Source: Elusimicrobiales bacterium
GTDB taxonomy: Bacteria; Elusimicrobiota; Elusimicrobia; Elusimicrobiales; UBA9959
Direction: 5' to 3'
Assembly: GCA_049972095.1 (NCBI GenBank)
Contig: JBMFKQ010000006.1
Span: 1 to 53,784, forward strand
DNA: 53,784 bases
Shown here: positions 298 to 33,750 of the stretch, one piece after another
Numbering within the stretch: the first letter of the stretch is position 1
How the letters are laid out: every line of letters begins with the position of its first letter
Made by a program: the position numbers and the translations under genes
Notes under the pieces: generated by a model
What the model was told of the DNA's origin: nothing
Seen by the model: only the letters and a program-made list of their open reading frames with translations
Database searches by the model: none

Positions 298-365
298 AAA
301 CTTGGAGACAAAATTATTATCCTGTATAATATTATTTCGGAGACATCTATTTTTTATCCAACTCA
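1..365 (+). mobile_element. Right part of an IS with terminal inverted repeat (about 301-365)
   Basis: Reverse complement of 301-365 (TGAGTTGGATAAAAAATAGATGTCTCCGAAA...TGTCTCCAA) matches 53400-53462 (CGCGTTGGACAATAAGTTTTGTCTCCGAAA...TGTCTCCAA). Confidence 0.8.
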
Positions 366-370
366 TTATG

Positions 371-376
371 TATAAT
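371..376 (+). promoter_or_regulatory. -10 box, probable leaderless promoter of the zinc-ribbon/rnhA/rnpB unit
   Basis: TATAAT lies 7 nt before ATG 384, with no Shine-Dalgarno (SD) sequence. Confidence 0.55.
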
Positions 377-383
377 AATAGTT

Positions 384-1624: not shown

Positions 1625-1953
1625 AAAAGCTGGACGGGCGATCGCTCTGAGATTATATCAGAGAGGAACCTCCGGACTCCGAAGGGAAACCAGCCATCCG
1701 CAAGGATGGGGATATGTGGCAAAAGCCATATATCACGGAAAGTGTAACAGAAAACATACCGCCTCAACATAAGGTTGAGGTAAGGGTGAAAAGGCGAGGT
1801 AAGAGCTCACCGCCAATGTGGCAACACATTGGCTGACAAACCCCTGGTGGAGCAAGGGCAAGCATGCTCGTTTGACTTGTCCCGAGAAGAGCAAGGTAGC
1901 CCGCATCAGATAAATGATCGCCTAAAACAGAATCCGGGGTATGGTCCAGCCTT
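1625..1953 (+). ncRNA. rnpB: RNase P RNA (type A-like)
   Basis: P1 AAGCTGGAC/GTCCAGC; GAGGAACCTCCGGAC; GGAAAGTGTAACAGAAAA; AGGGTGAAAAGGCGAGGTAAGAGC; AAACCCC...GAGCAAG; AGATAAATGATCGCC; ACAGAATCCGGGGTA. Confidence 0.93.
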
Positions 1954-1969
1954 GAAAGGAGATCTATTT

Positions 1970-2230
1970 ATGGAAAATATGATAAATGAGTTTCCAGAGA
2001 TAAAGAAAACAAAAAATCCATCCGAAATCAACTGGAAAGATTGTGTTGTATGGAATGAAGGTGATGAGTTTTTTTTCATAGACGCAAAAGAGATTCTCTA
2101 TGTTAGCTGGTCATTCGGCACATTATCTATAATACCATCATCTAACTCATTTCTTTCAGATAAACTATCAGCCATACTTATAAACTCAAAGCATATATTT
2201 GTTGGCAAAAACATAAAAATACACAACTAA
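1970..2230 (+). CDS. Small hypothetical protein (86 aa)
   Basis: AAGGAG SD before ATG 1970. The tracked start at 1829 lies inside rnpB. Confidence 0.55.
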   Translation: MENMINEFPEIKKTKNPSEINWKDCVVWNEGDEFFFIDAKEILYVSWSFGTLSIIPSSNSFLSDKLSAILINSKHIFVGKNIKIHN

Positions 2231-2237
2231 AAAGAAA

Positions 2238-3044
2238 TTAACTGATCTGTTTTTTAAAAACCCTTTTTATTACTGATATCATACCACTATGAATTGATGA
2301 ATTTGAAGCAAGTGTTTGTTTACCCCAGTTAAGAATATCGCTGATATCCTTGCCCCATACTCTGCCATCAAAATCTGTAACCATCCCACCAGCCTCTTCA
2401 ACTATTAGTTTTCCACTTGCTACATCCCAGGGTTTAAGATTAAATTCCCAGTATCCATCAAGCCTTCCCACAGCAACATAAGCCATATCAAGGCTTGCTG
2501 CTCCACATCTTCTTATATCATGCGAGTATTTTAAAAATTCAGAATAAAACGAGCAGTAAAACTCAGCTCTTTTAGCTCTATCATAAGCAAAGCCGGTTGC
2601 AAGAAGGGAGTCACAAAGATTTCTAACCTTTGAAACATTTATTCTCTTACCATTAAGCCACGAGCCTTTCCCTTTAACAGCACTAAAAACCTCATCTCTA
2701 CAAGGGTCATAAATAATCCCGCATACAACATCCCCCTCAAAAACAAAAGCAATAGAAACAGAAAAATGTTTGAATGAGTGTAAAAAATTAACTGTTCCAT
2801 CAAGTGGGTCAATAAGCCAAAGACGATCTTTGTTCTTTATTCTACTTACTTTTTCCTCAGAAATAAGAGAATCTGAGGGAAAATTTTCTGCTATTATTGA
2901 TGTTATAATCTGCTGGGATTCAACATCTGCAACAGTAAGAGGATTTGCCCTTCCTTTAAGCTTATAACCAACCTTACCAAAATACTTCATTATTTTATCA
3001 CCAGCTTTTTTAGCCGCTTCAATAGCAATATCCAACTCTTTCAT
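2238..3044 (-). CDS. suhB: Inositol monophosphatase family protein
   Basis: WLIDPLDGTVNF and WEFNLKPWDVASG motifs. Confidence 0.9.
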   Translation of the reverse strand: MKELDIAIEAAKKAGDKIMKYFGKVGYKLKGRANPLTVADVESQQIITSIIAENFPSDSLISEEKVSRIKNKDRLWLIDPLDGTVNFLHSFKHFSVSIAFVFEGDVVCGIIYDPCRDEVFSAVKGKGSWLNGKRINVSKVRNLCDSLLATGFAYDRAKRAEFYCSFYSEFLKYSHDIRRCGAASLDMAYVAVGRLDGYWEFNLKPWDVASGKLIVEEAGGMVTDFDGRVWGKDISDILNWGKQTLASNSSIHSGMISVIKRVFKKQIS

Positions 3045-4786
3045 CTCTTCCCTCCTGAATTGATGTATGAAAGCTCATAAACAAAAAATGGAACAAAAGC
3101 ATTTGGGTTTCTTATCTCCCTTCTAATATAATCTGTCATCTCTCTTCTATAACACTCAATGTTTTTTGAAAGTATGTGTATATCAAAATGAATTCTTTCA
3201 AAATCATAAGGAAGAACACATTTATATTCATATTCATCAACAAAAGCCTTAGGAAATCTATCCCTTCTTACAAGAATCATACTTATTGAATCAAAAAAAA
3301 CAATAGCCCAGTTCTCAAAATCTATACTTTTAAGATAAAAAGGTCTTTCAATAGCATACATCTTCCCTCTATCCATAACTCCTATTATCTCAGTTCTTTT
3401 ATCAACATAGATTGAGTATATAGCATAATCAAAATTGTATTTTCTATAAAAAGTCCTCCAGCTTTCCTTTGAACTCATAGCATTGAGATGCTCTTCAAGA
3501 ATATCAAGGAATATATATCTCCCATCTATAAATATCTTTCTCTTACCATAAAATCTAAAACCAAGATTACCACCTGAACTCCAATCATTATAGATCCTTT
3601 TCCCTTCAAAAAAAGAGGCATTTTTTTCAATAAAAGAAACCGCATAAGGGCTTAAGAAGCTATTTCTGTAAAAAACCCCATCTTTGAAATATAAGCACGA
3701 TCTAACAAGATCTACATAGGCTTCAAAGAAAAAATAAAATGAATAAAAAACAGCAAGAATGAAATATCTGATGTATTTTTTTGATATAAGATCTGAAAAA
3801 CTTTTAACAAAAATCATATGAACAACTATACTACCAAAACCAATAAGTCTCAAGTGCATTAAACTGCTAATCACAAAGAATGTAAGTAAAAAAACATCTG
3901 AAAGTTCATATATACGAGCCTTTATAAACCTTATAAAGTAAGCAAGAATGACCAAAAAAGAGAAAACAAAATAATAAAAAGTTGATATGCTCATAAACAT
4001 ATCAGAATACTGCCATTCAAATATATAATCAGCAATCTTTTTCATATCAACATAATGATAAAAGAAGACTCTAAGGATCTTGTATCCATACGGGTTTATA
4101 AAAATACCCATAGAGAAAAAAACAGCATATTTCAAAAATTTAAAGGTATTTTTAAAATCCTTTCTCTGACCTCTCAAAAACCCGACTATATCATTTAAAA
4201 AAAATGAAAGAAGATAGATAGATACAAGAACCCATCCAAAGATGTAGCCTGCGTGTATATTAACCCATAAAGCAGAAAGAGATAGAAGTAGATAAGCCCT
4301 TTTATAAGAAAAATCTGAATTCTTATATCCTTCAAGCAGAAAAAGAAGGAAGGTAAAAAAAAAGAATGTATAGTTATCAGGTCTTAGATCAAGAGATATT
4401 GCAAATGATAAAAATAATGAGGGCATAAACCAGATAAAGGCAAATGCCTCTAACCTAAGTCTTTTAGCATAAAGCAGATAAAAGCCAAAACATATCAGAA
4501 TCATATTTAAAAATTTAAGGAGACAAAGCGCCCTATATCCATCAAATCTGTATATCAGATAATATACAGCATCAACAATCCATTCAAAGTTTATCCATTC
4601 TCTTTCCGGAGAAAGCCAGCTGAGGAAATCTCTGGATGGGATTCTAAAATTCTCAATAATATATCTTCCATTTGAAAGATGCCAACCAATATCTGGATTA
4701 GCAATTGGAAGTATAAAAAAAGGAGCTGATAGAAGAAAACCTATTGATATAAATATGAAATAATCTTTAAGGTTATATCTTTCCAT
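3041..4786 (-). CDS. Polytopic membrane protein, possible GT-C fold glycosyltransferase
   Basis: About 10 or more hydrophobic segments. First loop has DIGWH...EW; also RP, LWVNIHAGY, INPYG and FIDGR motifs, with a soluble C-terminal domain. Confidence 0.55.
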   Translation of the reverse strand: MERYNLKDYFIFISIGFLLSAPFFILPIANPDIGWHLSNGRYIIENFRIPSRDFLSWLSPEREWINFEWIVDAVYYLIYRFDGYRALCLLKFLNMILICFGFYLLYAKRLRLEAFAFIWFMPSLFLSFAISLDLRPDNYTFFFFTFLLFLLEGYKNSDFSYKRAYLLLSLSALWVNIHAGYIFGWVLVSIYLLSFFLNDIVGFLRGQRKDFKNTFKFLKYAVFFSMGIFINPYGYKILRVFFYHYVDMKKIADYIFEWQYSDMFMSISTFYYFVFSFLVILAYFIRFIKARIYELSDVFLLTFFVISSLMHLRLIGFGSIVVHMIFVKSFSDLISKKYIRYFILAVFYSFYFFFEAYVDLVRSCLYFKDGVFYRNSFLSPYAVSFIEKNASFFEGKRIYNDWSSGGNLGFRFYGKRKIFIDGRYIFLDILEEHLNAMSSKESWRTFYRKYNFDYAIYSIYVDKRTEIIGVMDRGKMYAIERPFYLKSIDFENWAIVFFDSISMILVRRDRFPKAFVDEYEYKCVLPYDFERIHFDIHILSKNIECYRREMTDYIRREIRNPNAFVPFFVYELSYINSGGKR

Positions 4787-4852
4787 GCTTCATGCTATAG
4801 AAACTCTTTGTGTTTTTTTGAGAAAACTTAACCTGCTTAAACAATGTAATAA

Positions 4853-5929
4853 TCAAGGTCTATCCTCAATATGAATCTTAGAATCAACACCAAATATATA
4901 GGATATCAAAGCAGTCCTTACCCACATACCATTTCTCTCCTGTCTCCAGTACATCGCCCTTGGGTCATCATCAACCTCAACACTTATCTCATCCCTTCGG
5001 GGAAGGGGGTGCATTATAATAGCATCCTTTTTTATAATTTCAAGGTGTTTTTTTGTAAATCTGTATTTTGAATAATCAACTCTTTTTGACTCTCCTTCTT
5101 TGTCATGCTCATCTTGAATCCTTGTCATATATATCGCATCTGCCTCTTTTATACCCTCTTCAAAATCCTCGGTTTCATAATATGATATTGAGTTCTCTTT
5201 AAGAAAATCTATCACATCACTTTCCATTCTAAACTCTTTTGGTGATATATATATAAGCTTTACATTAGGATAGTTTTTCATAAGGAAGCTGAGTGATCTC
5301 ACAGTCCTTCCTCTTTTAAGATCACCAACCATTGCAATCGTCTTTCCATCAATCTTTCCTCCAAAGCTTCTGTAAAGTGTATATACATCAAGGAGAGCCT
5401 GCGTTGGATGTTGATCCTTACTTGAGCCAGCATTTATTACAGGGACCGGCCTTTTTGTCTTATTCATTAACCAGGCGGTTTTTTCAACGAAGTTAGGAGT
5501 TGGATGTCTCATTATTATAATATCTACATAGCTTGAAAATGTTCTAACACTGTCTTCAGGACTTTCCCCTTTATACTCAGATGATATTGAAGTATCCCTT
5601 ATCTCAGAAACCTTTATGCCAAGTATATGACATGCGTTAAGAAATGATAGAAATGTCCTTGTTGACGGCTGAACAAAATAGAGCATCGCTCTTTTGTGAA
5701 CAAGAAGCGATTGAGCAAACTCCATTCCTTCTTTTGTCTTTGTTATTCTTCTCAATGTATTTGCAATTCTAAAAAGATATTCCAGACTATCCTTTGTGAA
5801 TTGCTCTGCAAAAAGACAGTCATATATTCTGCCATTTCTTGTAAAATAAGGGATTTTCTCTTCAACACTCATCTTAACAAACTTATTCCAGTCCTTTTCT
5901 ATACTAACCATATCAATAGTTCTTTCCAT
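4853..5929 (-). CDS. pyrB: Aspartate carbamoyltransferase catalytic subunit
   Basis: PSTRT, KGES, HPTQALLD, GDLKRGRTVRSL and MHPLPR motifs; AAGGAGG SD. Confidence 0.93.
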   Translation of the reverse strand: MERTIDMVSIEKDWNKFVKMSVEEKIPYFTRNGRIYDCLFAEQFTKDSLEYLFRIANTLRRITKTKEGMEFAQSLLVHKRAMLYFVQPSTRTFLSFLNACHILGIKVSEIRDTSISSEYKGESPEDSVRTFSSYVDIIIMRHPTPNFVEKTAWLMNKTKRPVPVINAGSSKDQHPTQALLDVYTLYRSFGGKIDGKTIAMVGDLKRGRTVRSLSFLMKNYPNVKLIYISPKEFRMESDVIDFLKENSISYYETEDFEEGIKEADAIYMTRIQDEHDKEGESKRVDYSKYRFTKKHLEIIKKDAIIMHPLPRRDEISVEVDDDPRAMYWRQERNGMWVRTALISYIFGVDSKIHIEDRP

Positions 5930-19986: not shown

Positions 19987-20976
19987 ATGAATATTCTTAT
20001 ACTTAATTTCAACGAATGCCCTGAAAATTATCATCTTGAGGCTGTATTTTCAGAAATACTTTTGAAAGTTGATATTCCTTTCTATATCATACACTCATTT
20101 AATCATGACTATTCACATTTATCTGAAGGAAGAATTAAAAAAAGACAGCATATATCCAGAGTTTCACTTAAAAATCTTTTTAAACAGGGCTTCAACCTTC
20201 TTATATCCATAGACTTTCCATGGAAAAGAAACAGAAACTATCTTGCCTATATCAAAATAATAAAAGAGATTAAATGCAAAAAAATAATTATAGCAAACCA
20301 TCTTTGTCCTGATCCTGGTCAGTCAGCATTCATTGATGACTCAAAGGAAAGAGGACTTTTAAATCTATTTCAAACACTCTACATACTTGAATATGATGAT
20401 GATAAATTATGGCCAGCTAAATCAGTTATTATAAAAAAGAGAAAATTTGCTGTTGACACTGACTATTACAGACCTATTAATGTGGGAAAAAAATACGATA
20501 TACTTTGTTTTGGTTCAAAATCAAGAGCATTTGATATGCTGCAAGAACTCTCCTATAAATATTCAGTTGCAGTGCTTACATCACTAAACATAAAAATACC
20601 AAACCTCATTATAATGAAATTCAACGAAAACTTATTTAAAGTAAGAGATATAATAAACTCAAGCCGCCTTGTTGTAGCACCTGTAAATGAGAGTGAGATA
20701 AATCCAGCCTGTGGAAATACTGCGCTTTTTCTTGCCATGGCATGTGGTATTCCAGCCGTTGTAAGAGCTACGAACTATATGAAAAGATATGTAAAAGACG
20801 GTGTTAACTCATTTCTCTACAAAACACCAAATGATTTCTTAAAAAAGGTTATCTCAGCATTTGAAAAAACAAAAAAACTTGAAGTAATCTCAAAAAATGC
20901 AAGGGAAACAGCAATAGAAGATGCATCTATGAAAAAGATCATAAAATATATATTAGAAGAGGAGATCAAATGTTAG
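19987..20976 (+). CDS. GT-B (GT4-like) glycosyltransferase
   Basis: C-terminal AVDTDYY and LAMACGIPAV...YVKDGVN pattern. Confidence 0.65.
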   Translation: MNILILNFNECPENYHLEAVFSEILLKVDIPFYIIHSFNHDYSHLSEGRIKKRQHISRVSLKNLFKQGFNLLISIDFPWKRNRNYLAYIKIIKEIKCKKIIIANHLCPDPGQSAFIDDSKERGLLNLFQTLYILEYDDDKLWPAKSVIIKKRKFAVDTDYYRPINVGKKYDILCFGSKSRAFDMLQELSYKYSVAVLTSLNIKIPNLIIMKFNENLFKVRDIINSSRLVVAPVNESEINPACGNTALFLAMACGIPAVVRATNYMKRYVKDGVNSFLYKTPNDFLKKVISAFEKTKKLEVISKNARETAIEDASMKKIIKYILEEEIKC

Positions 20977-21821
20977 GTATGATTTTTATACCGTTAATAC
21001 TGAATGCCTTAGACTATACAATAATAAATGGAAAAAAGGAAATAACAATGGATACCTTTAGAAAAATGCTTCATAGATCTGATATCGTCTATATAGGCGA
21101 AACCCACACGAGCACTTTTTCTCATTCAGTGCAGCTTGAGGTAATAAGAATGATGTATGAAAAAAATAAAAAAATCTGTGTTGGGTTTGAGATGCTTAAT
21201 AAAACCCTTCAGCCATGGCTTGACAAATACCTGACAGGTGAGATAAGCGAGGATGAATTTTTAAACGGCATAAACTGGGAGAAGGAATGGGGATTTGATT
21301 TCTCACTATACAGACCAATATTTAGCTTTGTAAAGGATAGCAAACTCAAGGCTCTTGCATTAAATCTTCCAAGAAGAGTAGTTTCAAAGGTTGCAAGAGG
21401 CGGGATTGATGCTTTAAGCGAGGATGAGAAAAAACTCATGGCTAAAAATATTAAAGTTAATAAAAACAGAAGATATAAAAAATACCTTGAAAACACATTC
21501 TATACAGGTGATGAAAATCCAATGAATAAAATTATGACATTTGAAAACTATACTCTTTCAATGGCTGTATGGAATGAAACTATGGGTGAGAGAGTTGCAG
21601 AGTTTATAAACTTAAACCCAGGATACTCCTTTGTTGTAATTGCAGGAAATGGACATATAATCTACAATGCTGCAATCCCCTGGTCGGTTAGAAAAAGGAC
21701 AAAGAAACTCAAACACCTATCAATATACACAGCTGAGGAAAATGAGATACAAAACTCAAAAGATTATTATAAATGGGCTGATATAATAGTTGTAAAAAAA
21801 TCAACCACTCATATCAGATAA
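20970..21821 (+). CDS. ChaN/PhuW-like exported protein
   Basis: Signal peptide; YIGETH, GFEM, YRPIF, WNETM and IAGNGH motifs. Confidence 0.8.
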   Translation: MLGMIFIPLILNALDYTIINGKKEITMDTFRKMLHRSDIVYIGETHTSTFSHSVQLEVIRMMYEKNKKICVGFEMLNKTLQPWLDKYLTGEISEDEFLNGINWEKEWGFDFSLYRPIFSFVKDSKLKALALNLPRRVVSKVARGGIDALSEDEKKLMAKNIKVNKNRRYKKYLENTFYTGDENPMNKIMTFENYTLSMAVWNETMGERVAEFINLNPGYSFVVIAGNGHIIYNAAIPWSVRKRTKKLKHLSIYTAEENEIQNSKDYYKWADIIVVKKSTTHIR

Positions 21822-21886: not shown

Positions 21887-22141
21887 ATGAGAATATCTCC
21901 AAGAATAATATGGCGCCAGATAGATGGTGAGGTGTTTGTAATTGATCCCCTAAATGAAAAAATTTATGAGATGAACGAGACAGCATCTTTTGTGTTTAAA
22001 ATGATAAAAAAAGGTTTAGATATTGAGAGAATCGTAAAGAAAATGATTGATTGCTATGATGTTAAAGAGGATAAATGTAGAGATGATGTTTTGGAGATAA
22101 TAGAATATCTTTTAAGAAATGAGGTAATAGATGAAGAATAA
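21887..22141 (+). CDS. PqqD-family RiPP recognition element (RRE) protein
   Basis: 84 aa: WRQIDGEVFVID...YEMNETASFVF...YDV...CRDDVLEIIEYL, a PqqD-like pattern. Next to a radical SAM/SPASM gene. Confidence 0.85.
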   Translation: MRISPRIIWRQIDGEVFVIDPLNEKIYEMNETASFVFKMIKKGLDIERIVKKMIDCYDVKEDKCRDDVLEIIEYLLRNEVIDEE

Positions 22142-22268
22142 AAAAAAGTATATAAAACCTAAGATTAAGGCACAAAAAATTTTTGAAACTGCTGCCTTGG
22201 CATGTGGAAAGTGTCTATCAGGTCCTATAAATCAGCTCGCATGCCGAACCTTAAGAAGAGCCTCATAA
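22131..22268 (+). CDS. Putative RiPP precursor peptide (45 aa; not in ORF track)
   Basis: GAGGT SD at 22121-22125. Translation MKNKKKYIKPKIKAQKIFETAALACGKCLSGPINQLACRTLRRAS. Fills the gap between the RRE and peptidase genes exactly. Confidence 0.8.
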   Translation: MKNKKKYIKPKIKAQKIFETAALACGKCLSGPINQLACRTLRRAS

Positions 22269-22269
22269 A

Positions 22270-22623
22270 ATGCTAAAAGCAGCTAAACTCAAAGGTAACA
22301 GTATGAAGCCTTTTTTAAAAGATGGCGCTTTTGTTTTCTATAAAAACACAGATTATATAAGCCGCGGAGATATGGTTTTATATAGATATAAGGATAATTT
22401 ATACCTGCATAGAGTTATTGGTTTTGAAGAGGATTTTGTTATTGTTTCAAACGATGATGATATAACACCACATAAAGTAGAAAAATCAGAGATTGTTGGA
22501 AAAGCGTATTCTTTTTTAAATGGGTGTGTTGGTTATATAGCCCATATTATTATTAAAAGAGCAAGAAGGATAAGAAAGATTCTAAATGAATATTTCAGAA
22601 AAACTCTACCATATCTATTTTGA
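22270..22623 (+). CDS. S24/S26-family peptidase (signal peptidase I-like, no TM anchor)
   Basis: GNSMKPFL (catalytic Ser box), RGDMV, YLHRV and EIVGK motifs. Confidence 0.78.
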   Translation: MLKAAKLKGNSMKPFLKDGAFVFYKNTDYISRGDMVLYRYKDNLYLHRVIGFEEDFVIVSNDDDITPHKVEKSEIVGKAYSFLNGCVGYIAHIIIKRARRIRKILNEYFRKTLPYLF

Positions 22624-23650
22624 GAAAAACATTCCCATTTTAGCAAGTATAGAGCTTACAAGGCGGTGTGTTAATAGTTGCATTCACTGCTATCTTAATG
22701 AAACTCAAGAAAAGCTATCAAAATCAGATGAAGAATTATCTTTTTCTAAGATAAAAGATATATTTTTCCAGCTTAAAACTCTTGGAACAGTTTTTCTAAA
22801 TATAACTGGTGGAGAGCCTCTTTTAAGAAAAGATATAGTAAAGATAGTAAAGATTGCTGTTGAGTTTAATTTTTTAGTTAAGCTTTTCTCTTCATTAAAC
22901 TATGAGTCAAATATAATAGAAAGCCTTTATGATGTTGGGCTTAGATATATAGATGTAAGTCTTTATGGGAGAAAGGATATACATAATTTGGTAACTCGCT
23001 CTAACTCTTTCGATAAAACATTTGAAAATATAAAAAAAGCAAAAGAATTGGGTTTCAAGATCACTATAAAAACACCTGTTATGAGTCTAAATATAAATGA
23101 GATTAGATGGTTAAAAGAGTTTAGCTCTAATTATAATCTCAATTTCAAAATAGATCCAATTATCACCCCAAGAAACAATGGAGATACCTCACCTTTAAAA
23201 TACTCGATATCTAAAAATGACATTGAAAAACTTTTAGAATATGGATTAATTAACCTTGAGAATATTGATCTTGATTGCAATGCAGAGTATGTAGCCTGTG
23301 GAGCTATGAAAAGTGTTATTGCCATAGATGCCTATGGAAATGTTACTCCCTGTATTTCTTTGCCTCTTTGTATTGGAAATGTTAATGAAAACAAGATATC
23401 TGATATTTTAAAATCTAATATTGCTTGTGATGTTAGAAAAAAACTTGAAATTGAACCCAAAAAATGCATCAAGTGTAATTATAAGACTATCTGTTCAAGA
23501 TGCCCTGGAGTTTCATGGGTCTATGCTGGAAGGGTTGATTATGTATATAAACAGGCTTGTGAAATCTCTAAAAAAATTTACGAAATAAGATATTCTTCTT
23601 ACAAGAAAGAGCAAGATGAAGTAGCAGGCATAGAAACTACTCTACAATAG
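22586..23650 (+). CDS. Radical SAM/SPASM-domain peptide maturase
   Basis: CVNSCIHC, TGGEPLL and SPASM cysteines CGA...VTPC...CIKCNYKTICSRC...C. Confidence 0.88.
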   Translation: MNISEKLYHIYFEKNIPILASIELTRRCVNSCIHCYLNETQEKLSKSDEELSFSKIKDIFFQLKTLGTVFLNITGGEPLLRKDIVKIVKIAVEFNFLVKLFSSLNYESNIIESLYDVGLRYIDVSLYGRKDIHNLVTRSNSFDKTFENIKKAKELGFKITIKTPVMSLNINEIRWLKEFSSNYNLNFKIDPIITPRNNGDTSPLKYSISKNDIEKLLEYGLINLENIDLDCNAEYVACGAMKSVIAIDAYGNVTPCISLPLCIGNVNENKISDILKSNIACDVRKKLEIEPKKCIKCNYKTICSRCPGVSWVYAGRVDYVYKQACEISKKIYEIRYSSYKKEQDEVAGIETTLQ

Positions 23651-24374
23651 AAAGCTGGAAGTTTCCCCGTGTTGTTCCTATATAGAAAGCTGACTTAATT
23701 CCATACAGGCGCTTGTATGATGCAAAATCCATTATTTCTGATTCATCTTTTTTTGAGGTTATTCCAATAAGCCTCCATGGGTTTGAAACTGCTTTGAATA
23801 TATAGCTATTTTTTTTAAGCTCACTTGTCTCTATAACAGGAAGGACATATCCGCCAGGCACCATCTTTAAAAAATTTGCATATACCTCACCCTCAAGAGG
23901 CACAGCAGATATAAAAGAAACATAGTTATTCGTTTGTGGAAGCTCAAGTGAAGCTTTATATATTTCATTGAAAGCATAAACAAAAGTTTTTGAAAAATAA
24001 TTAAGAGGTGCAACAACCCTTCTTATCTCACCTGATATACTTGCTGATATCCTTATTATATCCCCCTGATAAAAAAGCATCTTTGATAGATCAATCTTTC
24101 GTGAGTAATTCATAAGCTGTGAGTCTTTCGTTTCTCTAAAAAAATCTTTAACATAAACCTTTTTTACATAACCCTCCTTCACAACAGTTTTATTATTTTG
24201 CTTTGTTTTTAAAATCACCTTTCCATCAAATGAAACCTCAAGATACAATGATATTTTTTTTAGATTATTTTCAAGATAAAGCCATATAACATCCCTCTCT
24301 TCCTCTGGAACATAGCCCTTGAGTGTAAAAGAGATTACAAAAAAACTAACGATAGCTGTTATTAGTTTTTTCAT
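23637..24374 (-). CDS. Exported hypothetical protein
   Basis: 245-aa ORF with signal peptide, translationally coupled to the DoxX gene. Confidence 0.65.
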   Translation of the reverse strand: MKKLITAIVSFFVISFTLKGYVPEEERDVIWLYLENNLKKISLYLEVSFDGKVILKTKQNNKTVVKEGYVKKVYVKDFFRETKDSQLMNYSRKIDLSKMLFYQGDIIRISASISGEIRRVVAPLNYFSKTFVYAFNEIYKASLELPQTNNYVSFISAVPLEGEVYANFLKMVPGGYVLPVIETSELKKNSYIFKAVSNPWRLIGITSKKDESEIMDFASYKRLYGIKSAFYIGTTRGNFQLSIVE

Positions 24375-24835
24375 AAACCAAATTTTTTTTCTATAAGATG
24401 ATCAAGGGAAAATTTTGAACTAAATTTATATGAAATCCACAAGAAAAAAAGCCATATAATATTAAGAAGAAACTCAACTCCTATTGGATTTGAATGCCGT
24501 GGTCCAAAACAACCACAGCTTGTTATCTCAAGCCTTCTTATTATTGCCTGAAGCAGAAGCAGTTCAAAGATAATAAAAAGCAAAATAGATGCTTTTATAA
24601 CATACCTTTCAAAAAGACCAAATATAACAAAAATTCCAAGGTAAAACTCAAACCATGGAAGAAATAAAGCAGTGTAATAAGCAATCGTCTGCCCTATAAT
24701 CTTATAGCTAAGTATTGCTGAGTAAAATGACTCAACCGGTTCTATTATTTTTACACACCCAGAATAGACAAGAACCAGACCAACCATAATCCTCATAAAA
24801 GGTGAAACATAAAAGGCTCTTTGTTTAAAGCTCAT
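24371..24835 (-). CDS. DoxX/MauE family membrane protein
   Basis: LPWFE and CGCFG motifs; about 4 TM segments. Confidence 0.85.
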   Translation of the reverse strand: MSFKQRAFYVSPFMRIMVGLVLVYSGCVKIIEPVESFYSAILSYKIIGQTIAYYTALFLPWFEFYLGIFVIFGLFERYVIKASILLFIIFELLLLQAIIRRLEITSCGCFGPRHSNPIGVEFLLNIIWLFFLWISYKFSSKFSLDHLIEKKFGL

Positions 24836-25458
24836 TTTATCACCTCTTTAAGCCTTTCAACAAGCTGATGCCCCCCAATAGCTTTTTTTCCATTTAAAAA
24901 GAATGTTGGCGTTGAATCAACACCAATCCTATCCCCTTCATTCATATCTTTTTTCACAAGATCAATTGCATTCGAAGATGAAACACAGTTTTTCATGACA
25001 TACAAATCAAGAGAAATCTTTTTAGAAAACTCCTCAAAATATTTAGTGCTATCAGTTGAATTTGACCATTTATCCCTTGTGCTAAAAAGCAGATCAGCAA
25101 ACTCCCAGAATTTCCCATACTCCTTTCCTGCACATTCAGCCCAAATTGCTGCTTTCATTGCATTTGGATGAAGATTTGTTAATGGATAATGCTTGAAGTC
25201 AACTCTTATATATGGAAAATAATCAATAAGGTCCTTTAAATAAAAATGCATTTTCTCACATGCAGGGCATGAAAAGTCAGAAAACTCATATATAACAATC
25301 TTTGCTTCCGTTCCCTTTATTTTTTGCCTGTATGACGGAGATGGCTCAAGTTTAATGCTAATATTAGAATTGTCTTCTTTTAAAAAAAGAACTATGACTG
25401 TTGATATGAATATAAGGATTGTGCCTGCAAATACTTTTATCTTTAAAACCCTACTCAT
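24832..25458 (-). CDS. DsbA-family thioredoxin-fold protein
   Basis: FSDFSCPAC, KHYPL and GVDSTPTFFLNG motifs; N-terminal anchor. Confidence 0.88.
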   Translation of the reverse strand: MSRVLKIKVFAGTILIFISTVIVLFLKEDNSNISIKLEPSPSYRQKIKGTEAKIVIYEFSDFSCPACEKMHFYLKDLIDYFPYIRVDFKHYPLTNLHPNAMKAAIWAECAGKEYGKFWEFADLLFSTRDKWSNSTDSTKYFEEFSKKISLDLYVMKNCVSSSNAIDLVKKDMNEGDRIGVDSTPTFFLNGKKAIGGHQLVERLKEVIK

Positions 25459-25477: not shown

Positions 25478-27028
25478 TTAATCCTTTTCTATAAGCGAAC
25501 TTCCAGTCATATCAGCTGGCTTTTCAATCCCCATAAAATCAAGAACTGTTGGAGCAATGTCTCGAAGCATTCCTCTATTTGCAAGCTTCATATTTTCAAC
25601 CCCTTGACCCACTACGATAAACTCAACAGGGTTTGTTGTGTGTGATGTTTTTGGCATATTAATCCTATAATCCCACATCTCCTCACTGTTTCCATGATCT
25701 GCGGTTATCAAAATAACATATCCCTTCTCAAGTCCCTTTCTTACAAGCCTTCCAACACACTCATCAACAATCTCTATTGCTCTCTTTGCAGAGTCAAAAT
25801 TACCGGTATGCCCAACCATATCACCATTTGCAAAATTTACAAGAATAAAATCATATTTTCCGCTTTCTATCTCACTTTCACACCGTTCAGCTACACCATA
25901 TGCCTCCATCTCAGGGTGTTCAGCAAAGCTTGAAGGATCAAACCTGCTTTTTATCTCAATCCTGTCCTCACCAGGATATGGTTTTATCCTCTTGCCGTTA
26001 AAAAATGAGGTTACATGTCTAAATTTCTGTGTCTCAGCTATCCTGAGCTGTTTTAAACCTTTTTGAGATAAAATCTGCCCTAAAAGATTATTCATATTAC
26101 CACTCTCATCCATAGGTGAAATTGCAAAATATTTAAACTCATCATAATATCTTGTAAGCCCACAATAGACAATATCTAACCTTCTTTCTCTTTTACCTGG
26201 ATAATTATTCTCAACAAAAGCCTTTGTAAGCTGTATTGCTCTATCCTGTCTAAAGTTAAAATGTATTACACTATCCCCATCTTTTACTCCCCTATAATCA
26301 CCTATAACCATTGGTTGTATGTATTCATCGATGACAGGCTGGCCGTTTGGCTGTTTCATATTTTTATATGCATAATCTATAGCATTTAGTGGATCGCTCA
26401 TCTTAAGCCCTTGAGCTTCGGTTATTGCTCTGTATGCAATATCAGTAAGATTCCAATTCTCACTTCTATCCATAGAGTAGTATCTACCCATAATAGTTGC
26501 AATTTTAACCTCAGGCTTATCTTTTATATAATCAACAAGCTTCTTCATATATGAAATGGCACTTCTTGGTGGAGTATCTCTTCCATCTGCAAAAAAGTGT
26601 ATGTATATTTTCCCAACACCCATTGAAAGAGCCTTTTCAATTATTGAATACATATGATCCTCATGAGCATGAACACCCTCATCCTGAACAAGCCCCATAA
26701 GATGAAGTGCAGATTTTTTTGCATTTTCAATCGCATTTTTTATTGCCGGCAGTTCAAAAAAACTTCCGTCCTCAATCATATCCTTTATCCTCTTAAGCTC
26801 CTGAATTACTATCCTTCCAGCCCCCATATTCAGATGTCCAACCTCGCTTGAACCCTGGTAACCTTTTGGAAGCCCAACAGCCTCTCCAGAAGCCTCAAGA
26901 ATCGTATTTGGATATCTCTTTAAATATTCATCAATATTTGGTTTTCTTGCAGCCTTAACTGCATTATACCTGTCATCATCCCTTCCTATTCCCCAACCAT
27001 CTCTTACAATAAGAATAACCCTTTTCAC
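25478..27028 (-). CDS. gpmI: 2,3-bisphosphoglycerate-independent phosphoglycerate mutase
   Basis: DGWG, GSSEVGH, DGRD, DMVGHTG and TADHGN motifs. GTG start at 27028 after GGAG. Confidence 0.93.
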   Translation of the reverse strand: MKRVILIVRDGWGIGRDDDRYNAVKAARKPNIDEYLKRYPNTILEASGEAVGLPKGYQGSSEVGHLNMGAGRIVIQELKRIKDMIEDGSFFELPAIKNAIENAKKSALHLMGLVQDEGVHAHEDHMYSIIEKALSMGVGKIYIHFFADGRDTPPRSAISYMKKLVDYIKDKPEVKIATIMGRYYSMDRSENWNLTDIAYRAITEAQGLKMSDPLNAIDYAYKNMKQPNGQPVIDEYIQPMVIGDYRGVKDGDSVIHFNFRQDRAIQLTKAFVENNYPGKRERRLDIVYCGLTRYYDEFKYFAISPMDESGNMNNLLGQILSQKGLKQLRIAETQKFRHVTSFFNGKRIKPYPGEDRIEIKSRFDPSSFAEHPEMEAYGVAERCESEIESGKYDFILVNFANGDMVGHTGNFDSAKRAIEIVDECVGRLVRKGLEKGYVILITADHGNSEEMWDYRINMPKTSHTTNPVEFIVVGQGVENMKLANRGMLRDIAPTVLDFMGIEKPADMTGSSLIEKD

Positions 27029-27086
27029 ATCATCTCCATTTAAAAACATTTTATAAAAATATTTTATAAACTACCAAACAAAATAT

Positions 27087-28760
27087 CTATCTTCCAAAAT
27101 AGGGATGAGGTATATAGGTTTTTTTCTGAGGTTTGTCCTGAGACTTAACAAGTCCTATTTCTCTTACAAAAATCTTTTCAGGAACAACTAAAGAAGCCGC
27201 AACAGATGAGCTATTATAAAAAGGTCCCTTCTCAAAAAAGTTTACAACATATTCCTTTTCTGATGTAAACAAAATATCCCTAAGGATTCTTGTGCCTGGA
27301 TCTTCAAAATCAATATTTGTTACATATCTCTTTTCTCCACTTTTAAGATTCATTATATAAGCAACAACCGGTGATTGAATCGGCTTTGATGTGTCTTTTA
27401 TTGATGATGCAATCTTTTCAACAAAAATCACCTCGTCATAACCCTGTTCATAGGCATACTTTTTGACATTTTTCATAAACCTTTCATCAGAATAAGTTTT
27501 AGATGATTTAATAAAAACATTTGAAGGAAAAGGATAGACATACATATCATAATTGCCTCTTCCTCTTCCGTTTGAATATGAGATGTATTTAGAAGGCCTT
27601 CTTGATGAATAAAATGTCTTAAGAACACCACTTTCAACAAGCCTTAGTTTAACAGGCATAACCCCTTCATCATCAATATCATAAGCTCCTACAAGCTGAA
27701 TGCCGTTATAAATTTTTATTCCAGCATCATCATAAACATCTATGAAATTAGGAAAAACCCTTTTACCAATCCTCTCAACAAGTCTTGGAAGTGAATAGTA
27801 ATACTTCAAGTAGTTTTCATCCTCAGTCTCAGGAGGAGGAAAGAATGAGATATTTCTTACAAAAAGAGAATTTATCAGCTCAAAAGCTGCATCCTTTTCA
27901 AATATACATGGAGCTGCAAAATAATCAATCTCCTGCGCTGGATACGAATCCGAAAACATCTTTATATATCCTTCAGCATCAGCAATAGCTTTTTTCTCAA
28001 AATCCTCTACGCTAAAATAAAAAAAATCCTTAAAATCTTTTTTGATATACCCTTTCTCATCCTGAAAATCTATATCAGCTCTCATAACAATCTGGTATGA
28101 ATTTTTTCTAAAATATCTATTCTCAGAGTCAGCAAATCGCATAATGTTTTTTGATATATTCAGCGTAAAATCAACAGACTTGACCTTTGGATATTTCTTA
28201 GAAACATTAGAAACCCTTTCAAGGATATCTCTGTAAACATCACATCTTAACTCAGCTGTGCTTTCAGGTGAGACATAGCTTACAACTGGAGCTTGTGAAA
28301 TCTCAGGGTAAAAATCAGCTATTGCCTTTTTCTCTCTGTATGCCTTTTTCATTGAAAAGATCTCGCAGGCATTTTTATATGCCTCATCACTAAGATACCA
28401 CAAACCCCATCTGACTGCATCATAGTTATCATCAGCAGGGATATCCATATAAAAAGGCAGATATCTATTAAGATCCGTTGCAAAATTTGAGCTATCAAAT
28501 ACACTTGTTCCAATTCTCAGATCAATCTTTGCTGTTCTTTTTTTGACTAAATAGTTTGAAGATATTTTTCCAAAATTACCATCCATACTACAGTTTTCCA
28601 TGTCGTATACAGAATAGGATATAAAATATGGAAGAGGAAAGCTTGAGTCCTTAAGCCTTGATATATTCCTTGATATCTCATCCCTCATAGCATCCATAAC
28701 AGGGTCTTGCGAAAAAGAAGCTGTAGATAAAAAAGAGAGAATAAAAAAAAGAAGACTCAT
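27087..28760 (-). CDS. TldE/PmbA-like subunit with signal peptide
   Basis: Similar layout to the neighbour (DDEGV, SNGRGR) but no HExxH; translationally coupled to the tldD-like gene. Confidence 0.7.
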   Translation of the reverse strand: MSLLFFILSFLSTASFSQDPVMDAMRDEISRNISRLKDSSFPLPYFISYSVYDMENCSMDGNFGKISSNYLVKKRTAKIDLRIGTSVFDSSNFATDLNRYLPFYMDIPADDNYDAVRWGLWYLSDEAYKNACEIFSMKKAYREKKAIADFYPEISQAPVVSYVSPESTAELRCDVYRDILERVSNVSKKYPKVKSVDFTLNISKNIMRFADSENRYFRKNSYQIVMRADIDFQDEKGYIKKDFKDFFYFSVEDFEKKAIADAEGYIKMFSDSYPAQEIDYFAAPCIFEKDAAFELINSLFVRNISFFPPPETEDENYLKYYYSLPRLVERIGKRVFPNFIDVYDDAGIKIYNGIQLVGAYDIDDEGVMPVKLRLVESGVLKTFYSSRRPSKYISYSNGRGRGNYDMYVYPFPSNVFIKSSKTYSDERFMKNVKKYAYEQGYDEVIFVEKIASSIKDTSKPIQSPVVAYIMNLKSGEKRYVTNIDFEDPGTRILRDILFTSEKEYVVNFFEKGPFYNSSSVAASLVVPEKIFVREIGLVKSQDKPQKKTYIPHPYFGR

Positions 28761-30445
28761 TTTCCCTCCGATGATAAATTGCTATCAAAATGTGGTGGGG
28801 GTAAAAGTGGTGGCTTTTTGTTGGACTTTGGTGTCCTTTGAGTCTCTATCTCCGAGAAAAGTAAAGAGCCAGAAACAGCACTTACATCAACCCATCCAGA
28901 TTCAGCCCCACACACGCCATTAAAAACATCATAATCATCAGCCGCAGCAACTATCTTTGAAAATGTCTGAAGAGGAGTGCCTATCATATTAAGTCCCTTA
29001 ACAGGAATCTTCTTGCCATCAGGATATACAAGCACTGCATCCTTTATAAGTATGGTATAACTCTGAGGCATAGTTCTCTTTGTATAAGTATATCCTCCCT
29101 CAATATCATTTATTATAAGCCCATATGGTTTTCCAGATTTTCTTATAAGCTCAATAAGCCTTTTTTCAAGCTCATCATAGCTTAGAGGATTCTTAAATTC
29201 AGCAATTAGATTACCCTGTCTTGAAACAGTCATATAACCACTGCTTCTTCTTCCATGTCCGTTTGATCTCATAACCCCTCTAACAGGAACCCTCTGCATC
29301 AAAAAGTTCTTTAAAAGACCGTCTTTCACAAGAATTGTCCTTTCAGCCCTTACTCCTTCATCGTCATACAAATAATGTCCATTTAAAAATTTCCCAGCAT
29401 AATACTCAAGGGTTGGATCATCGTATATGCTTATAAAATCGGGCATTATTTGCTTTCCAAGTTTATCAGCAAATGTTAATCCTTCCTTTTCACCTTTTTG
29501 TCTATGCCCTTCTATTCTATGGCCAAATATCTCATGCCAAAAAACTGCAGCAGCCTTGTTTTTCAGTATAGCAGGGCCTGAGTATGGTGCAAGATTATCA
29601 GCATAAAGCTGTCTTTCTAAAACAGATACACCTTCATCAAAATCCCTTTTAATATCATTGAAATCAGGCATCTTTGATATGCTTTTAAAATAATACGATC
29701 TGTAGGATGATATATCAGTTCCATCAGATGTTCTTGAATAAAGGCTCCAGCTAAAAAGGTATTTTACACCTCCCTCAACTATGGATGTCCCTTGGGAATT
29801 AACTATATATCTTGATTGATTGGTATAAGTAAAATAGATATCTCCATCTATAAGAAATCTGTATTTTTTCATCTCAGCACCAAGCCTTTTCATCATCTCC
29901 TTTATCTTTTCATTATCAAAAAACTCATCCTCCTGTGTTTTGTAAAATGTTGAGAGTTCAACATCATATATGAAATCCCCTGATTTATCCTCTTCCTCAG
30001 CAGTTATATTTTTGTTTGCAATAACTCTTGTATATCTTTCAATTGCTCTTTTAAGTGTTTCATCTGTCAAGAGCCAAAGCTGTGTTTTTATAGCATCAGC
30101 ATCATAAGCAAGCTGTGCCTGTAAAAGATATCTTGAGTTATCATCATGATCATCAGATTTTATCTCATGTGTTGAGTCAAGCGTTGTGCTTCCAACTCTA
30201 ACATCACAAACAGCAACTACATATGAATAGCTGCTTTGAGAAAGTTGTGAGTCCATCTTAACCGACATACTAAGACCGCTCTTTTTCCATGCCTCATAGC
30301 CTATGAAATAAATCGGATATTCAGTTTTACCTTTTATCTCCTGCTCAAATCTTAAAAGCTCATCTTTCATCGCAGAAAGCAAGATGTCCTGCGCATTAAG
30401 AGAAAAACTGAAAAGCAAAAATAAAATTGCACCCATAAGATTCAT
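28757..30445 (-). CDS. tldD: TldD-family metalloprotease with signal peptide
   Basis: HEIFGHRIEG, YDDEGV, SNGHGR and GVCGAESG motifs. Confidence 0.82.
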   Translation of the reverse strand: MNLMGAILFLLFSFSLNAQDILLSAMKDELLRFEQEIKGKTEYPIYFIGYEAWKKSGLSMSVKMDSQLSQSSYSYVVAVCDVRVGSTTLDSTHEIKSDDHDDNSRYLLQAQLAYDADAIKTQLWLLTDETLKRAIERYTRVIANKNITAEEEDKSGDFIYDVELSTFYKTQEDEFFDNEKIKEMMKRLGAEMKKYRFLIDGDIYFTYTNQSRYIVNSQGTSIVEGGVKYLFSWSLYSRTSDGTDISSYRSYYFKSISKMPDFNDIKRDFDEGVSVLERQLYADNLAPYSGPAILKNKAAAVFWHEIFGHRIEGHRQKGEKEGLTFADKLGKQIMPDFISIYDDPTLEYYAGKFLNGHYLYDDEGVRAERTILVKDGLLKNFLMQRVPVRGVMRSNGHGRRSSGYMTVSRQGNLIAEFKNPLSYDELEKRLIELIRKSGKPYGLIINDIEGGYTYTKRTMPQSYTILIKDAVLVYPDGKKIPVKGLNMIGTPLQTFSKIVAAADDYDVFNGVCGAESGWVDVSAVSGSLLFSEIETQRTPKSNKKPPLLPPPHFDSNLSSEGK

Positions 30446-31699: not shown

Positions 31700-32905
31700 T
31701 CAATGATAGTGGTGTGTCTTATGAGTCTTTATCTCAAATAACTCTTTACCTTCCGCAAAAGGTGATATATCTCTAAGTTTTTTTATAACATCTACAAGAA
31801 TATCAACAAGATATCTTACATCATCTTCAGTGTTGTATATACTCAATGAAAATCTAACAGTTCCATGTGCATATATCATAGGTATTCTCATTGCCATCAA
31901 CACATGTGATGGTTCAAGAGAGCCACTGGAACACGCTGATCCTGTTGAAGCACATATTCCTTTCTCACTTAACATCAGTATTATTGACTCACCCTCAACA
32001 TATCCAAAACTTATGCTTGATGTGTTTGGAAGCCTTGGGGCATTTTTTCCATTTATTCTAATATTGTCAATCCTTGAAAAAACACTTTCTTCAATCATAT
32101 CCCTTAGTTTTCTAACATAGTTATTTTCTCTCTCCATATTAATCTTTGCAAGCTCACACGCCTTACCAAGCCCAACTATGTAAGGGACATTCTCAGTTCC
32201 AGCGCGCCTTCCTCTTTCCTGATGACCACCTAACATAAAAGGCACAAAGGGAGTTGATTTTCTAACATAAAGAAAACCTATCCCCTTTGGGGCATGGAGT
32301 TTATGAGCTGATGCAGAAAGCATATCTATCTTATTTGATGCCATATTTATTGGGATCTTCCCTACTGCCTGAACTGCGTCGGTATGAAAAATAACACCCT
32401 TTTTCTTACATATCTCAGCTATCTCCTCAACAGGATATATAACCCCTGTTTCATTATTTGCCCACATAACACTTACAACTGCTGTGTCAAAAGTTATTGC
32501 CCTTTCAAGTTCATTCATATCAAGCATACCATCCTCATTAACACTAAGATAACTAACACGATATCCTTGTGTTTCAAGATATCTACAAAGATTTAAAACA
32601 GATGGATGCTCAACAGATGTTGTGACAATATGCTTTTTATCAGGGTTTGATCTAATAGCAGAGTATATTGCAGTTGAATTACTTTCTGTACCACAGCTTG
32701 TAAAAATTATTTCTTGAGGATTTGCTCCTATTAAAGATGCAACCTTCTCCCTTGCATCATCAATGTATTTCTGAACCTGTCCTCCAAAAAAATGCATGCT
32801 TGATGGATTTCCATATAACTGACTGAAAAACCTATCCATCTCCAACTTAACATCATCTGCAACCCTTGTTGTTGCATTATTGTCAAGATAAACAACCCTT
32901 TCCAT
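31700..32905 (-). CDS. nifS: Cysteine desulfurase NifS
   Basis: YLDNNATT, HTDAVQ, SAHKLH and GSACSSG motifs; GGAGG SD before ATG 32905. Confidence 0.92.
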   Translation of the reverse strand: MERVVYLDNNATTRVADDVKLEMDRFFSQLYGNPSSMHFFGGQVQKYIDDAREKVASLIGANPQEIIFTSCGTESNSTAIYSAIRSNPDKKHIVTTSVEHPSVLNLCRYLETQGYRVSYLSVNEDGMLDMNELERAITFDTAVVSVMWANNETGVIYPVEEIAEICKKKGVIFHTDAVQAVGKIPINMASNKIDMLSASAHKLHAPKGIGFLYVRKSTPFVPFMLGGHQERGRRAGTENVPYIVGLGKACELAKINMERENNYVRKLRDMIEESVFSRIDNIRINGKNAPRLPNTSSISFGYVEGESIILMLSEKGICASTGSACSSGSLEPSHVLMAMRIPMIYAHGTVRFSLSIYNTEDDVRYLVDILVDVIKKLRDISPFAEGKELFEIKTHKTHHYH

Positions 32906-32916
32906 AAAATCCTCCG

Positions 32917-33750
32917 TCAAACAAGCTCAATTCTTATATCACCACCAATCTTTTCCTTAAGCGTTTTTTCAACAATTGATGAAAAGGTATTAGAAGATAG
33001 AGCACAGCTTCTACATGCCCCAAGAAACCTAAGCTTTATAATATTTCCCTCAATATCAATAAGCTCAATAAAGCCACCATCCTCTTTTAGCTTTGGATTT
33101 ATATCCTGGCTTAAAATCCTTTCAACAATCTTTATCTTTTCGACATTCGTCATCCTTAAAAAATCAAGCCTCTCCTTTCCAGCCCAAAAGTCTTTTATTA
33201 TCTTTTCTATTTCACCCTTACATCTTCCACAACCACCGCCTGCCTTTGTAAAGTGAGTGACCTCATCAACGCTTTTTAAATTATTCACCTCAATCGCTTT
33301 AAGTATTGTTTTTTCACTAACATTAAAACATTTACAAACTATTCTGTACTGCTCTCCAATAATTCTCTTAATCCCTTTTTTAGTATAGTAGTTTTCTATT
33401 GCTGCCTCCAAAGCCTCCATTCCCATAACAGAGCAGTGCATCTTCTGCTGTGGTAAACCGCCAAGAAAGTTTGCTATATCCTGATTTGTTATCCTTGCTG
33501 CCTCCTCTATTGTCTTTCCAATAATCATCTCGGTTAATGCACTTGAGGATGCAATAGCACTTGCGCAACCAAATGTCTTAAACTTTGCATCAAGTATAAT
33601 ATGCGTTTTGGGGTCAATTTTAAGGGTAAGCTTCAAAGCATCTCCACAAACAATACTTCCAACCTCCCCAATAGCATCAGCATCCTCAATCTCACCAACA
33701 TTTTTAGGGTTTCTAAAATACTCCATCATCCTCTCACTATAGTTCCACAT
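32917..33750 (-). CDS. nifU: Three-domain Fe-S scaffold NifU
   Basis: IscU domain (CGD, FGC, KMHC), central CKC...CGRC domain and C-terminal Nfu CRSC. Confidence 0.92.
   Translation of the reverse strand: MWNYSERMMEYFRNPKNVGEIEDADAIGEVGSIVCGDALKLTLKIDPKTHIILDAKFKTFGCASAIASSSALTEMIIGKTIEEAARITNQDIANFLGGLPQQKMHCSVMGMEALEAAIENYYTKKGIKRIIGEQYRIVCKCFNVSEKTILKAIEVNNLKSVDEVTHFTKAGGGCGRCKGEIEKIIKDFWAGKERLDFLRMTNVEKIKIVERILSQDINPKLKEDGGFIELIDIEGNIIKLRFLGACRSCALSSNTFSSIVEKTLKEKIGGDIRIELV

Follow-up and report, generated by a model that had tools for sequence, protein, structure and literature searches.

A conserved 45-codon gene next to a PqqD gene in an Elusimicrobiales bacterium as the likely precursor of a modified ribosomal peptide

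The window analyzed here, a stretch of 53,784 nucleotides from an Elusimicrobiales bacterium, carries a 45-codon open reading frame (ORF) lodged between the genes of a PqqD-family protein and a peptidase, which raises the question of whether so small a frame is a gene and what its product might be. A preliminary description, made from the letters of the DNA, took it for the precursor of a ribosomally made, post-translationally modified peptide (RiPP), with a YxxP leader dependent on a RiPP recognition element (RRE) and a core containing Cys. That proposal is now backed by conservation, by a conserved gene order, and by homology to a characterized system, and we consider it likely that the ORF is such a precursor, which is bound, cross-linked, and trimmed by the enzymes encoded next to it. 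The locus combines what is generally expected of an RRE-dependent precursor: a small conserved ORF, a discrete RRE, modifying enzymes, and a conserved leader motif. Of the systems described so far, the LPP pathway (LppA/B/S/K/N/D), which makes linear polyphosphorylated peptides in Bacillota, comes closest (Popov et al., Nat Commun 2026, PMC13381572). The features concerned are as follows.

22131–22268 (+): precursor peptide gene, 45 amino acids plus stop; one copy in the genome
22121–22125 (+): Shine-Dalgarno-like GAGGT, 5 nt ahead of the precursor ATG, read from the sequence
22131–22190 (+): inferred leader, residues 1–20, with a Lys-rich N-terminus; assigned from invariant residues and likeness to LppA
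22149–22166 (+): predicted RRE-binding motif of the leader, Y7-x-K9-P10-x-I12, in which Y7, K9, and P10 are invariant
22182–22190 (+): predicted cleavage motif of the leader, F18-E19-T20, all three residues invariant
22191–22265 (+): inferred core, residues 21–45, AALA-C25-G-K-C28-…-Q35-L-A-C38-x6-S45; assigned from conservation
21887–22141 (+): discrete PqqD-family RRE, 84 amino acids (Pfam PqqD, 53.4 bits)
22270–22623 (+): soluble S24/S26 (SipW/archaeal signal peptidase I-like) leader peptidase, 117 amino acids (Pfam)
22586–23650 (+): radical S-adenosylmethionine (SAM)/SPASM maturase, 354 amino acids, without an N-terminal RRE of its own (Pfam Radical_SAM 68.3 bits, SPASM 35.2 bits)

The frame runs from an ATG at 22131 to a TAA at 22266–22268, shares 11 nt with the 3′-end of the PqqD gene (21887–22141), and is separated by one base from the peptidase ATG at 22270; the Cys pattern of its product is C25-x2-C28-x9-C38. 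All of this, together with the 45-residue translation and the GAGGT sequence, had been given in the preliminary description and agrees with the sequence. A frame of this size proves nothing by itself, because short ORFs are common here, with 120 of at least 30 amino acids in 18 kb of the AT-rich DNA of the window. A search of 5.8 billion proteins returned 29 further precursor clusters with E values of 6e-18 to 3e-10; their members are 44–61 amino acids long (44–47 in 27 of the clusters), and 19 positions are invariant (Y7, K9, P10, K16, F18, E19, T20, A22, L23, A24, C25, G26, K27, C28, G31, P32, Q35, C38, and the C-terminal S45). When one genome per species was scanned, 56 precursor loci came to light, of which 51 have record titles naming Elusimicrobiota lineages, and five are titled only “MAG: bacterium” (metagenome-assembled genome); a record of Elusimicrobium minutum is among them. 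Comparison of 54 equal-length copies (of 57, three being of other length and left out) gave 20,891 synonymous against 12,934 non-synonymous codon-pair differences. The invariant residues vary only synonymously, as in P10 (0.69/0.00, synonymous/non-synonymous) and S45 (0.54/0.00). As this holds across DNA with a G + C content of 0.30–0.67, the frame is under purifying selection as a protein: the precursor gene is real and is read in the frame given above.

Within the phylum the precursor occurs in 65 of 401 sampled genomes and in 37 of 123 genera, and was not found in two large families (0/118 and 0/89 sampled genomes). Neither the peptide of the window nor 30 cluster members nor 20 distant relatives match any Pfam or NCBIfam model, a precursor profile matches solved structures at chance level only, and the homologues are named “hypothetical protein” at JGI and NCBI. 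The family nonetheless reaches well beyond the phylum. Searching 1.84 billion cluster representatives with a profile brought up 330 matches at E ≤ 0.001, with the consensus KKPYxKPxFxxERVFETxALACGK…C…S, and a second search, in which 8000 candidates were scored, counted 6551 or more clusters of proteins (clustered at 90% identity), which share YxKP…FET-xALxCGK…C-x6-S. Source names are again confined to “hypothetical protein”; they come from Acidobacteriaceae and a MAG labeled Gemmatimonadetes/Gemmatimonadota. Among 150 representatives examined, the C-terminal Ser is present in 145; the distance from Tyr to Phe is 11 in 133 of the 139 that could be scored, and Leu stands at core position +3 in 134 of 139. 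The first Cys lies within CGK in 124 of 141, the last Cys is exactly seven residues from the C-terminus in 120 of 141, and Gln occupies position −3 relative to it in 66 of 141; in the best 120 matches of the second search this position is Gln (78), Glu (40), or Asp (2). Two metagenome proteins depart from the usual architecture: P0119 (151 amino acids) fuses PqqD to the precursor, and P0084 (106 amino acids) has two leader-like KRPYVKP segments.

The preliminary description had proposed a homology search for precursors near PqqD and radical SAM genes, and its outcome bears the proposal out. Linkage was scored with hidden Markov models (HMMs) built from the window proteins and their relatives, that is, from subsets of the 56 loci, whose own members match by construction. 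On this basis the S24 peptidase lies within 4 kb of the precursor in all 56 Elusimicrobiota loci, PqqD in 54, the radical SAM enzyme in 51, and a kinase-like protein in 45; downstream sequence of 1700 bp or more is available for only 51 of these loci, and upstream sequence of 1300 bp or more for only 45. The wider family shows another order (peptide, S24, kinase, PqqD, radical SAM) in 80 metagenome loci from soil and peat, where the counts are 67 (S24), 53 (kinase), 43 (PqqD), and 36 (radical SAM), only 25 of these loci being 10 kb or longer. The precursor is thus tied to the same four genes in two very different gene orders, and it is this recurrence that we regard as strong evidence that the five components work together.

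The PqqD gene beside the precursor is the only one in the genome. A profile of 20 homologues of its product matches the lasso peptide B1 RREs TbiB1 (9e-15) and TfuB1 (6e-11) and the structure of LppB, 9x8z_B (5e-10). In the HMM alignment to the latter, N30 and D67, invariant in the family, fall on LppB N33 and D70, which in LPP fix the leader at its Pro kink and its Tyr hydroxyl (PMC13381572). From these conserved contact residues we surmise that the 84-residue protein binds the leader through Y7-x-x-P10-x-I12 as an added β-strand. Prediction of an RRE–leader complex had been proposed as a check in the preliminary description. The RRE–precursor pair scored 0.56 against 0.04 for the best of three controls, with runs agreeing in at least 76% of contacts and a partner pLDDT (predicted local distance difference test) of at least 55, and so passed a mark that 116 of 157 solved complexes and 2 of 215 mismatched pairs also reach.

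The PqqD protein would present the precursor to the radical SAM/SPASM enzyme. This protein has the motif C28-x3-C32-x2-C35 and further conserved Cys at 238, 256, 294, 297, 303, 306, and 325; its best solved relatives by sequence are SkfB (1e-11), Tes, and PqqE. A CxxxCxxC radical SAM domain, a SPASM domain with auxiliary-cluster Cys, and a Cys-containing core, the traits of sactipeptides and ranthipeptides, are thus all present. The enzyme likely joins invariant Cys residues to nearby side chains, and the mini-motifs C25-G-K27 and Q35-x-x-C38 are candidates for conversion into thioether rings. C-G-K and [Q/E/D]-x-x-C recall the WGK motif, in which WgkB joins W and K, and the NxxC motif, in which NxxcB forms a Cys–Asn β-thioether and tolerates Gln (PMC9389541). 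By this analogy Cys-to-side-chain links are suggested, and thioether crosslinks in the core, as the preliminary description had it, are plausible.

The product of the gene that follows the precursor scores 41.8 bits with Pfam Peptidase_S24, 24.3 bits with Peptidase_S26, and 36 bits with NCBIfam sigpep_I_arch, the last being under the cut-off. In an alignment with SpsB its S11 and H47 fall in the boxes of the catalytic Ser and Lys, and 27 homologues keep S11, H47, and D62. The model (pLDDT 92.9) is closest in Foldseek to SpsB (4wvj), followed by the C-terminal domains of LexA and λ cI. Only 10 residues precede the catalytic Ser, so there is no N-terminal helix of the kind with which LppS contacts its RRE (PMC13381572); the protein has instead a long C-terminal helix (model residues 85–112), and acidobacterial relatives have an N-terminal extension of 40–50 residues. 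LppS (S29/H68/D93) cleaves LppA after T-1 of FET, only in the presence of LppB, and requires F-3, E-2, and T-1 (PMC13381572). From this homology the SipW-like Ser/His/Asp peptidase would remove the leader, helped by the RRE and most likely after F18-E19-T20. A cut there would probably release the 25-residue core AALACGKCLSGPINQLACRTLRRAS. In two divergent loci (L048 6199–6528 and L057 6186–6560) a Cys replaces the catalytic Ser of the peptidase (GGCM in place of GxSM), and the peptides differ in the second half of the core.

The fifth component of the system is an HprK/ScmC-like kinase, which the preliminary description had missed together with the invariant C-terminal Ser. Proteins of this family carry the Walker A motif GKSGAGKST and match the NCBIfam models HprK_rel_A, ScmC, and HprK_rel_B below threshold. 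Alignment with the HprK of the same genome by hhalign (E 9e-5, probability 59%) spans the His, P-loop, and SDE/SDD motifs, and in the ESM Atlas the nearest clusters carry PF27840 ScmC (score 0.97). The gene adjoins the cassette in 45 of the 56 related loci and is unlinked in this genome, where its single copy lies outside the window on contig C10 (G000:C10:36204–36968 (−), L065 8112–8966). There it ends an operon of GT4, a 319-amino acid ORF without a Pfam match, GT4, WbqC, and metallophosphoesterase genes, beside L31 and RF genes; in genomes G060 and G154, of another genus, it is found at the syntenic place. According to genome lists compared by hand, all 65 precursor-positive genomes among the 401 sampled hold the kinase at E ≤ 1e-15, and 14 hold the kinase only. 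Lasso precursors with only a C-terminal Ser in common are phosphorylated on this residue by HprK homologues (PMC8498205), and by analogy the kinase probably phosphorylates Ser45. A kinase paralogue of about 430 amino acids is also seen among the genes upstream of PqqD in Elusimicrobiota loci such as L007 (genes at 203–5619).

The resemblance to LPP, as far as that pathway is described in the portions of PMC13381572 used here, extends to most of these parts. LPP precursors carry YxxPxVLxHQxIxFETxxS, and the two leaders have YxxPx[V/I]…FET in common (PMC13381572). LppB is likewise a discrete RRE of the lasso type with an Asn and an Asp fixing Pro and Tyr; the peptidases are of one soluble SipW-like Ser/His/Asp class, the comparison being one of boxes and fold and not with the LppS sequence; and both systems have an HprK-like kinase, here outside the cassette on C10 (PMC13381572). 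LPP clusters sit in polysaccharide loci, and an association with glycosyltransferase or polysaccharide loci is shared (PMC13381572). The differences are equally clear. The cassette has a radical SAM/SPASM enzyme and LPP, in those portions, has none; its core is short, highly conserved, and Cys-bearing, whereas LPP C-termini are “highly variable” and without conserved Cys (PMC13381572). The distance from Tyr to Phe is 11 in the present family and 13 in the LPP logo, the spacer being two residues shorter (PMC13381572). Core position +3 is Leu rather than the phospho-acceptor Ser of FETxxS, and the C-terminal Ser is invariant here, unlike in LPP (PMC13381572). LPP clusters also encode an NTP (nucleoside triphosphate) transferase, LppN, and an MsbA-like exporter, LppD, neither of which is found within the cassette, the genome itself not having been searched for an exporter (PMC13381572). 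Finally, the hosts are Elusimicrobiota, Acidobacteriaceae, and a Gemmatimonadota-labeled MAG, whereas LPP is called restricted to Bacillota (PMC13381572). The terms “radical SAM,” “SPASM,” “Elusimicrobi,” and “Acidobacteri” do not occur in the text of PMC13381572 that was searched. A 197-amino acid protein of the LppN family (PF14907, NTP_transf_5) is encoded after ATP synthase beta and epsilon genes (G000:C12:18801–19250, L149 1489–2082), with no link to the cassette seen.

Several points weigh against the pathway proposed here. No RNA run is listed with the locus, the DNA runs being hot-spring metagenomes, and no transcript, modification, or product has been observed. The radical SAM enzyme reaches no NCBIfam cut-off, and its best scores are spread over NirJ, AhbD, MftC, PqqE, and SkfB, so that the sequence does not single out thioether chemistry. 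No exporter is conserved in the cassette. The RRE–precursor prediction lends weak support to leader binding: with a score of 0.60 or less the mark is passed by only 18 of the 157 solved complexes, and by both of the mismatched pairs that passed at all, and because RRE–leader complexes have already been solved the pass may reflect likeness only. Residues A22, L23, and A24, just ahead of the first Cys, are invariant and fit a signal-peptidase −3/−1 site. The kinase of this clade, standing at the end of a glycosyltransferase operon outside the window, may have another substrate there. LppK, an HprK-like kinase, polyphosphorylates Ser3 of the LPP core (PMC13381572), whereas that position is Leu in the present family, and the C-terminal Ser as target comes from the lasso analogy alone.

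Could the radical SAM/SPASM enzyme make something other than thioethers, for instance a C–C or C–N crosslink at Lys27, the peptide then giving rise to a cofactor instead of a secreted natural product? The core is far more conserved than the enzymes (57–77% identity for the peptide against 17–57%), its length is fixed, and C-x6-S is constant. A fixed and conserved peptide is also what is seen with PqqA and MftA. The acidobacterial orthologues of the enzyme score 122–134 bits on the mycofactocin maturase model (cut-off 265), and the missing exporter fits a cofactor as well. However, two or three of the Cys are invariant, and LPP, for which PMC13381572, as far as used here, gives no radical SAM enzyme, also has none of those Cys. 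SPASM enzymes with Cys-rich substrates, moreover, commonly form sactionine or ranthionine links (PMC9389541, PMC13692751). Taken together this makes a different core chemistry rather improbable, if worth keeping in view.

The site of the cut is the second matter in dispute. The preliminary description had placed it at ALA-C25, and a cleavage A22-L23-A24|C25 following the classical −3/−1 rule was at first the favored one; the same precursor would then expose an N-terminal Cys-Gly-Lys-Cys. Apart from the invariant Ala, Leu, and Ala, this boundary is suggested by the alignment of the peptidase with the signal peptidase I boxes and by a weak NCBIfam match of peptidase relatives to the maturation protease of nickel superoxide dismutase, an S26-type enzyme. 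That protease exposes an N-terminal metal hook. The only characterized homologous system, on the other hand, cuts after FET, with F-3, E-2, and T-1 all required (PMC13381572), and the present family has an unvarying F18, E19, and T20 in the same register relative to the core. Because of the homology with LppS, cleavage between T20 and A21 is favored, and the boundary at C25 has been downgraded to an unlikely one.

That the precursor gives an LPP-like linear phosphopeptide and nothing more, the radical SAM enzyme acting on another substrate, is very improbable. LPP does offer counterparts of the leader, RRE, peptidase, and kinase, yet the radical SAM gene is no more than 4 kb away in 51 of 56 loci, and soil contigs of the family have it too whenever they are long enough; the enzyme moreover has no RRE of its own, while the sole PqqD gene of the genome adjoins the precursor. 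The idea that the ORF arose by chance in the 128 nt separating PqqD from the peptidase gene, for which the abundance of short ORFs in this AT-rich DNA might speak, can be dismissed in view of the 29 clusters, the 19 invariant residues changing only synonymously across that wide span of G + C content, the 56 loci, the codon comparison, and the thousands of homologous clusters.

We thus return to a precursor that is bound by the PqqD protein, cross-linked, and trimmed, and to its place among the other known classes. With the phosphorylated lasso peptides paeninodin and pseudomycoidin it has in common an HprK homologue, a C-terminal Ser, a B1-type RRE, and a YxxP/WxxP leader, as far as these are described in the part of PMC8498205 used here. 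Unlike in lasso systems, there is no B2 protease (PF13471 has 0 matches in the genome, which is 96.5% complete) and no cyclase within the cassette, the genome not having been searched for one; the leader peptidase of the cassette is of another class, and a radical SAM enzyme is present. A combination of a ScmC/HprK-like P-loop protein, a PqqD-like protein, and a radical SAM/SPASM enzyme is also known from the uncharacterized SynChlorMet (Scm) system, represented by the NCBIfam models TIGR04249 (ScmC), TIGR04248 (ScmD), and TIGR04250/04251 (ScmE/ScmF); no paper with the word SynChlorMet was found. All four models remain far under cut-off (ScmD 17.7 bits against 100, ScmE 52 against 400, ScmC 25–45 against 125), and unlike SynChlorMet the cassette has one radical SAM enzyme rather than two, an S24/S26 peptidase, and a precursor without NCBIfam match. 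Ranthipeptides and sactipeptides share the radical SAM/SPASM enzyme and the Cys core, with [Q/E/D]-x-x-C resembling NxxC and SkfB as best solved relative, whereas membership in a curated model is lacking, and the kinase and SipW-like peptidase are foreign to those classes as presented in the sections of PMC9389541 used here. None of the cassette enzymes reaches a curated NCBIfam cut-off. A literature search found no paper on the precursor or on a radical SAM-linked LPP-like system, although supplements, which were left unopened, could list the family; a term search of the radical SAM compendium PMC10288494 gave 0 matches.

What might the peptide do? A core conserved to this degree points to a function in physiology and not in warfare, and the envelope-related surroundings point, as a lead only, to the cell surface. 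In its most specific form, which we put forward as speculative and doubtful, the product would be a near-invariant cross-linked 25-mer with a phosphate on its C-terminal Ser that acts in cell-surface biogenesis and not as a variable antibiotic; the phospho-Ser could serve as a sugar attachment point, or the peptide as a ligand or cofactor of large surface proteins. Such a role would explain why the core is more conserved than the enzymes across phyla, why the kinase ends a conserved glycosyltransferase operon in this clade, and why a GT4 gene lies directly upstream here. It would also account for two kinds of neighbor elsewhere: a pilin-like giant protein of about 830 amino acids, with a prepilin N-methylation motif and CarboxypepD_reg domains, upstream of PqqD in 25 of 56 loci (e.g., L007), and a secreted or anchored protein of about 620 amino acids without a Pfam match that adjoins the cassette in 38 of 80 soil loci (e.g., L066 1513–3396). 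Whatever the role, ribosomal peptide biosynthesis would gain with this family a large, unnamed branch that extends across phyla and unites the leader, RRE, SipW-like peptidase, and kinase logic of LPP with a radical SAM/SPASM enzyme and a near-invariant Cys core. Its fixed motifs CGK, [Q/E]xxC, and C-x6-Ser-COOH give testable predictions of new crosslink chemistry and permit a test of HprK-like kinases on a C-terminal Ser outside lasso peptides.

Two further genes precede the cassette in the window.

19987–20976 (+): GT4 glycosyltransferase (Pfam)
20970–21821 (+): ChaN/Tiki-superfamily protein (Pfam)

They overlap by 7 nt, and a gap of 65 nt separates ChaN from PqqD; the pair is possibly co-transcribed and lineage-specific. 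Downstream, on the minus strand at 23637–25458 and tail-to-tail with the radical SAM gene (14-nt overlap), are a 245-amino acid ORF without a Pfam match, a MauE/DoxX membrane protein, and a thioredoxin/DsbA-like protein, which look like a thiol-redox set. Since none of these five genes was found near the precursor in the 56 related loci (within 6 kb for GT4 and ChaN), they are not core parts of the system. The cassette has a G + C content of 0.29–0.33 against about 0.36 in its flanks, with no clear island, and a promoter scan was uninformative (27 sites against 26.1 expected).

In the related loci a second, pilin-like gene of 170 amino acids stands upstream of PqqD in 18 of 56, and an Rrf2 regulator is found downstream of the cassette in 21 of 56. 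Some soil loci also have a PF14907 nucleotidyltransferase, an ABC-2 transporter pair, an M28 peptidase, or a second PqqD gene. Farther along the window, two adjoining TldD/PmbA-like metallopeptidase genes (557 and 562 amino acids) are found at 27087–30445 on the minus strand; TldD/E pairs act in the processing of some ribosomal peptides. An iPGM gene is present at 25478–27049, and a class-V aminotransferase (NifS-like) is encoded at 31700–32920.

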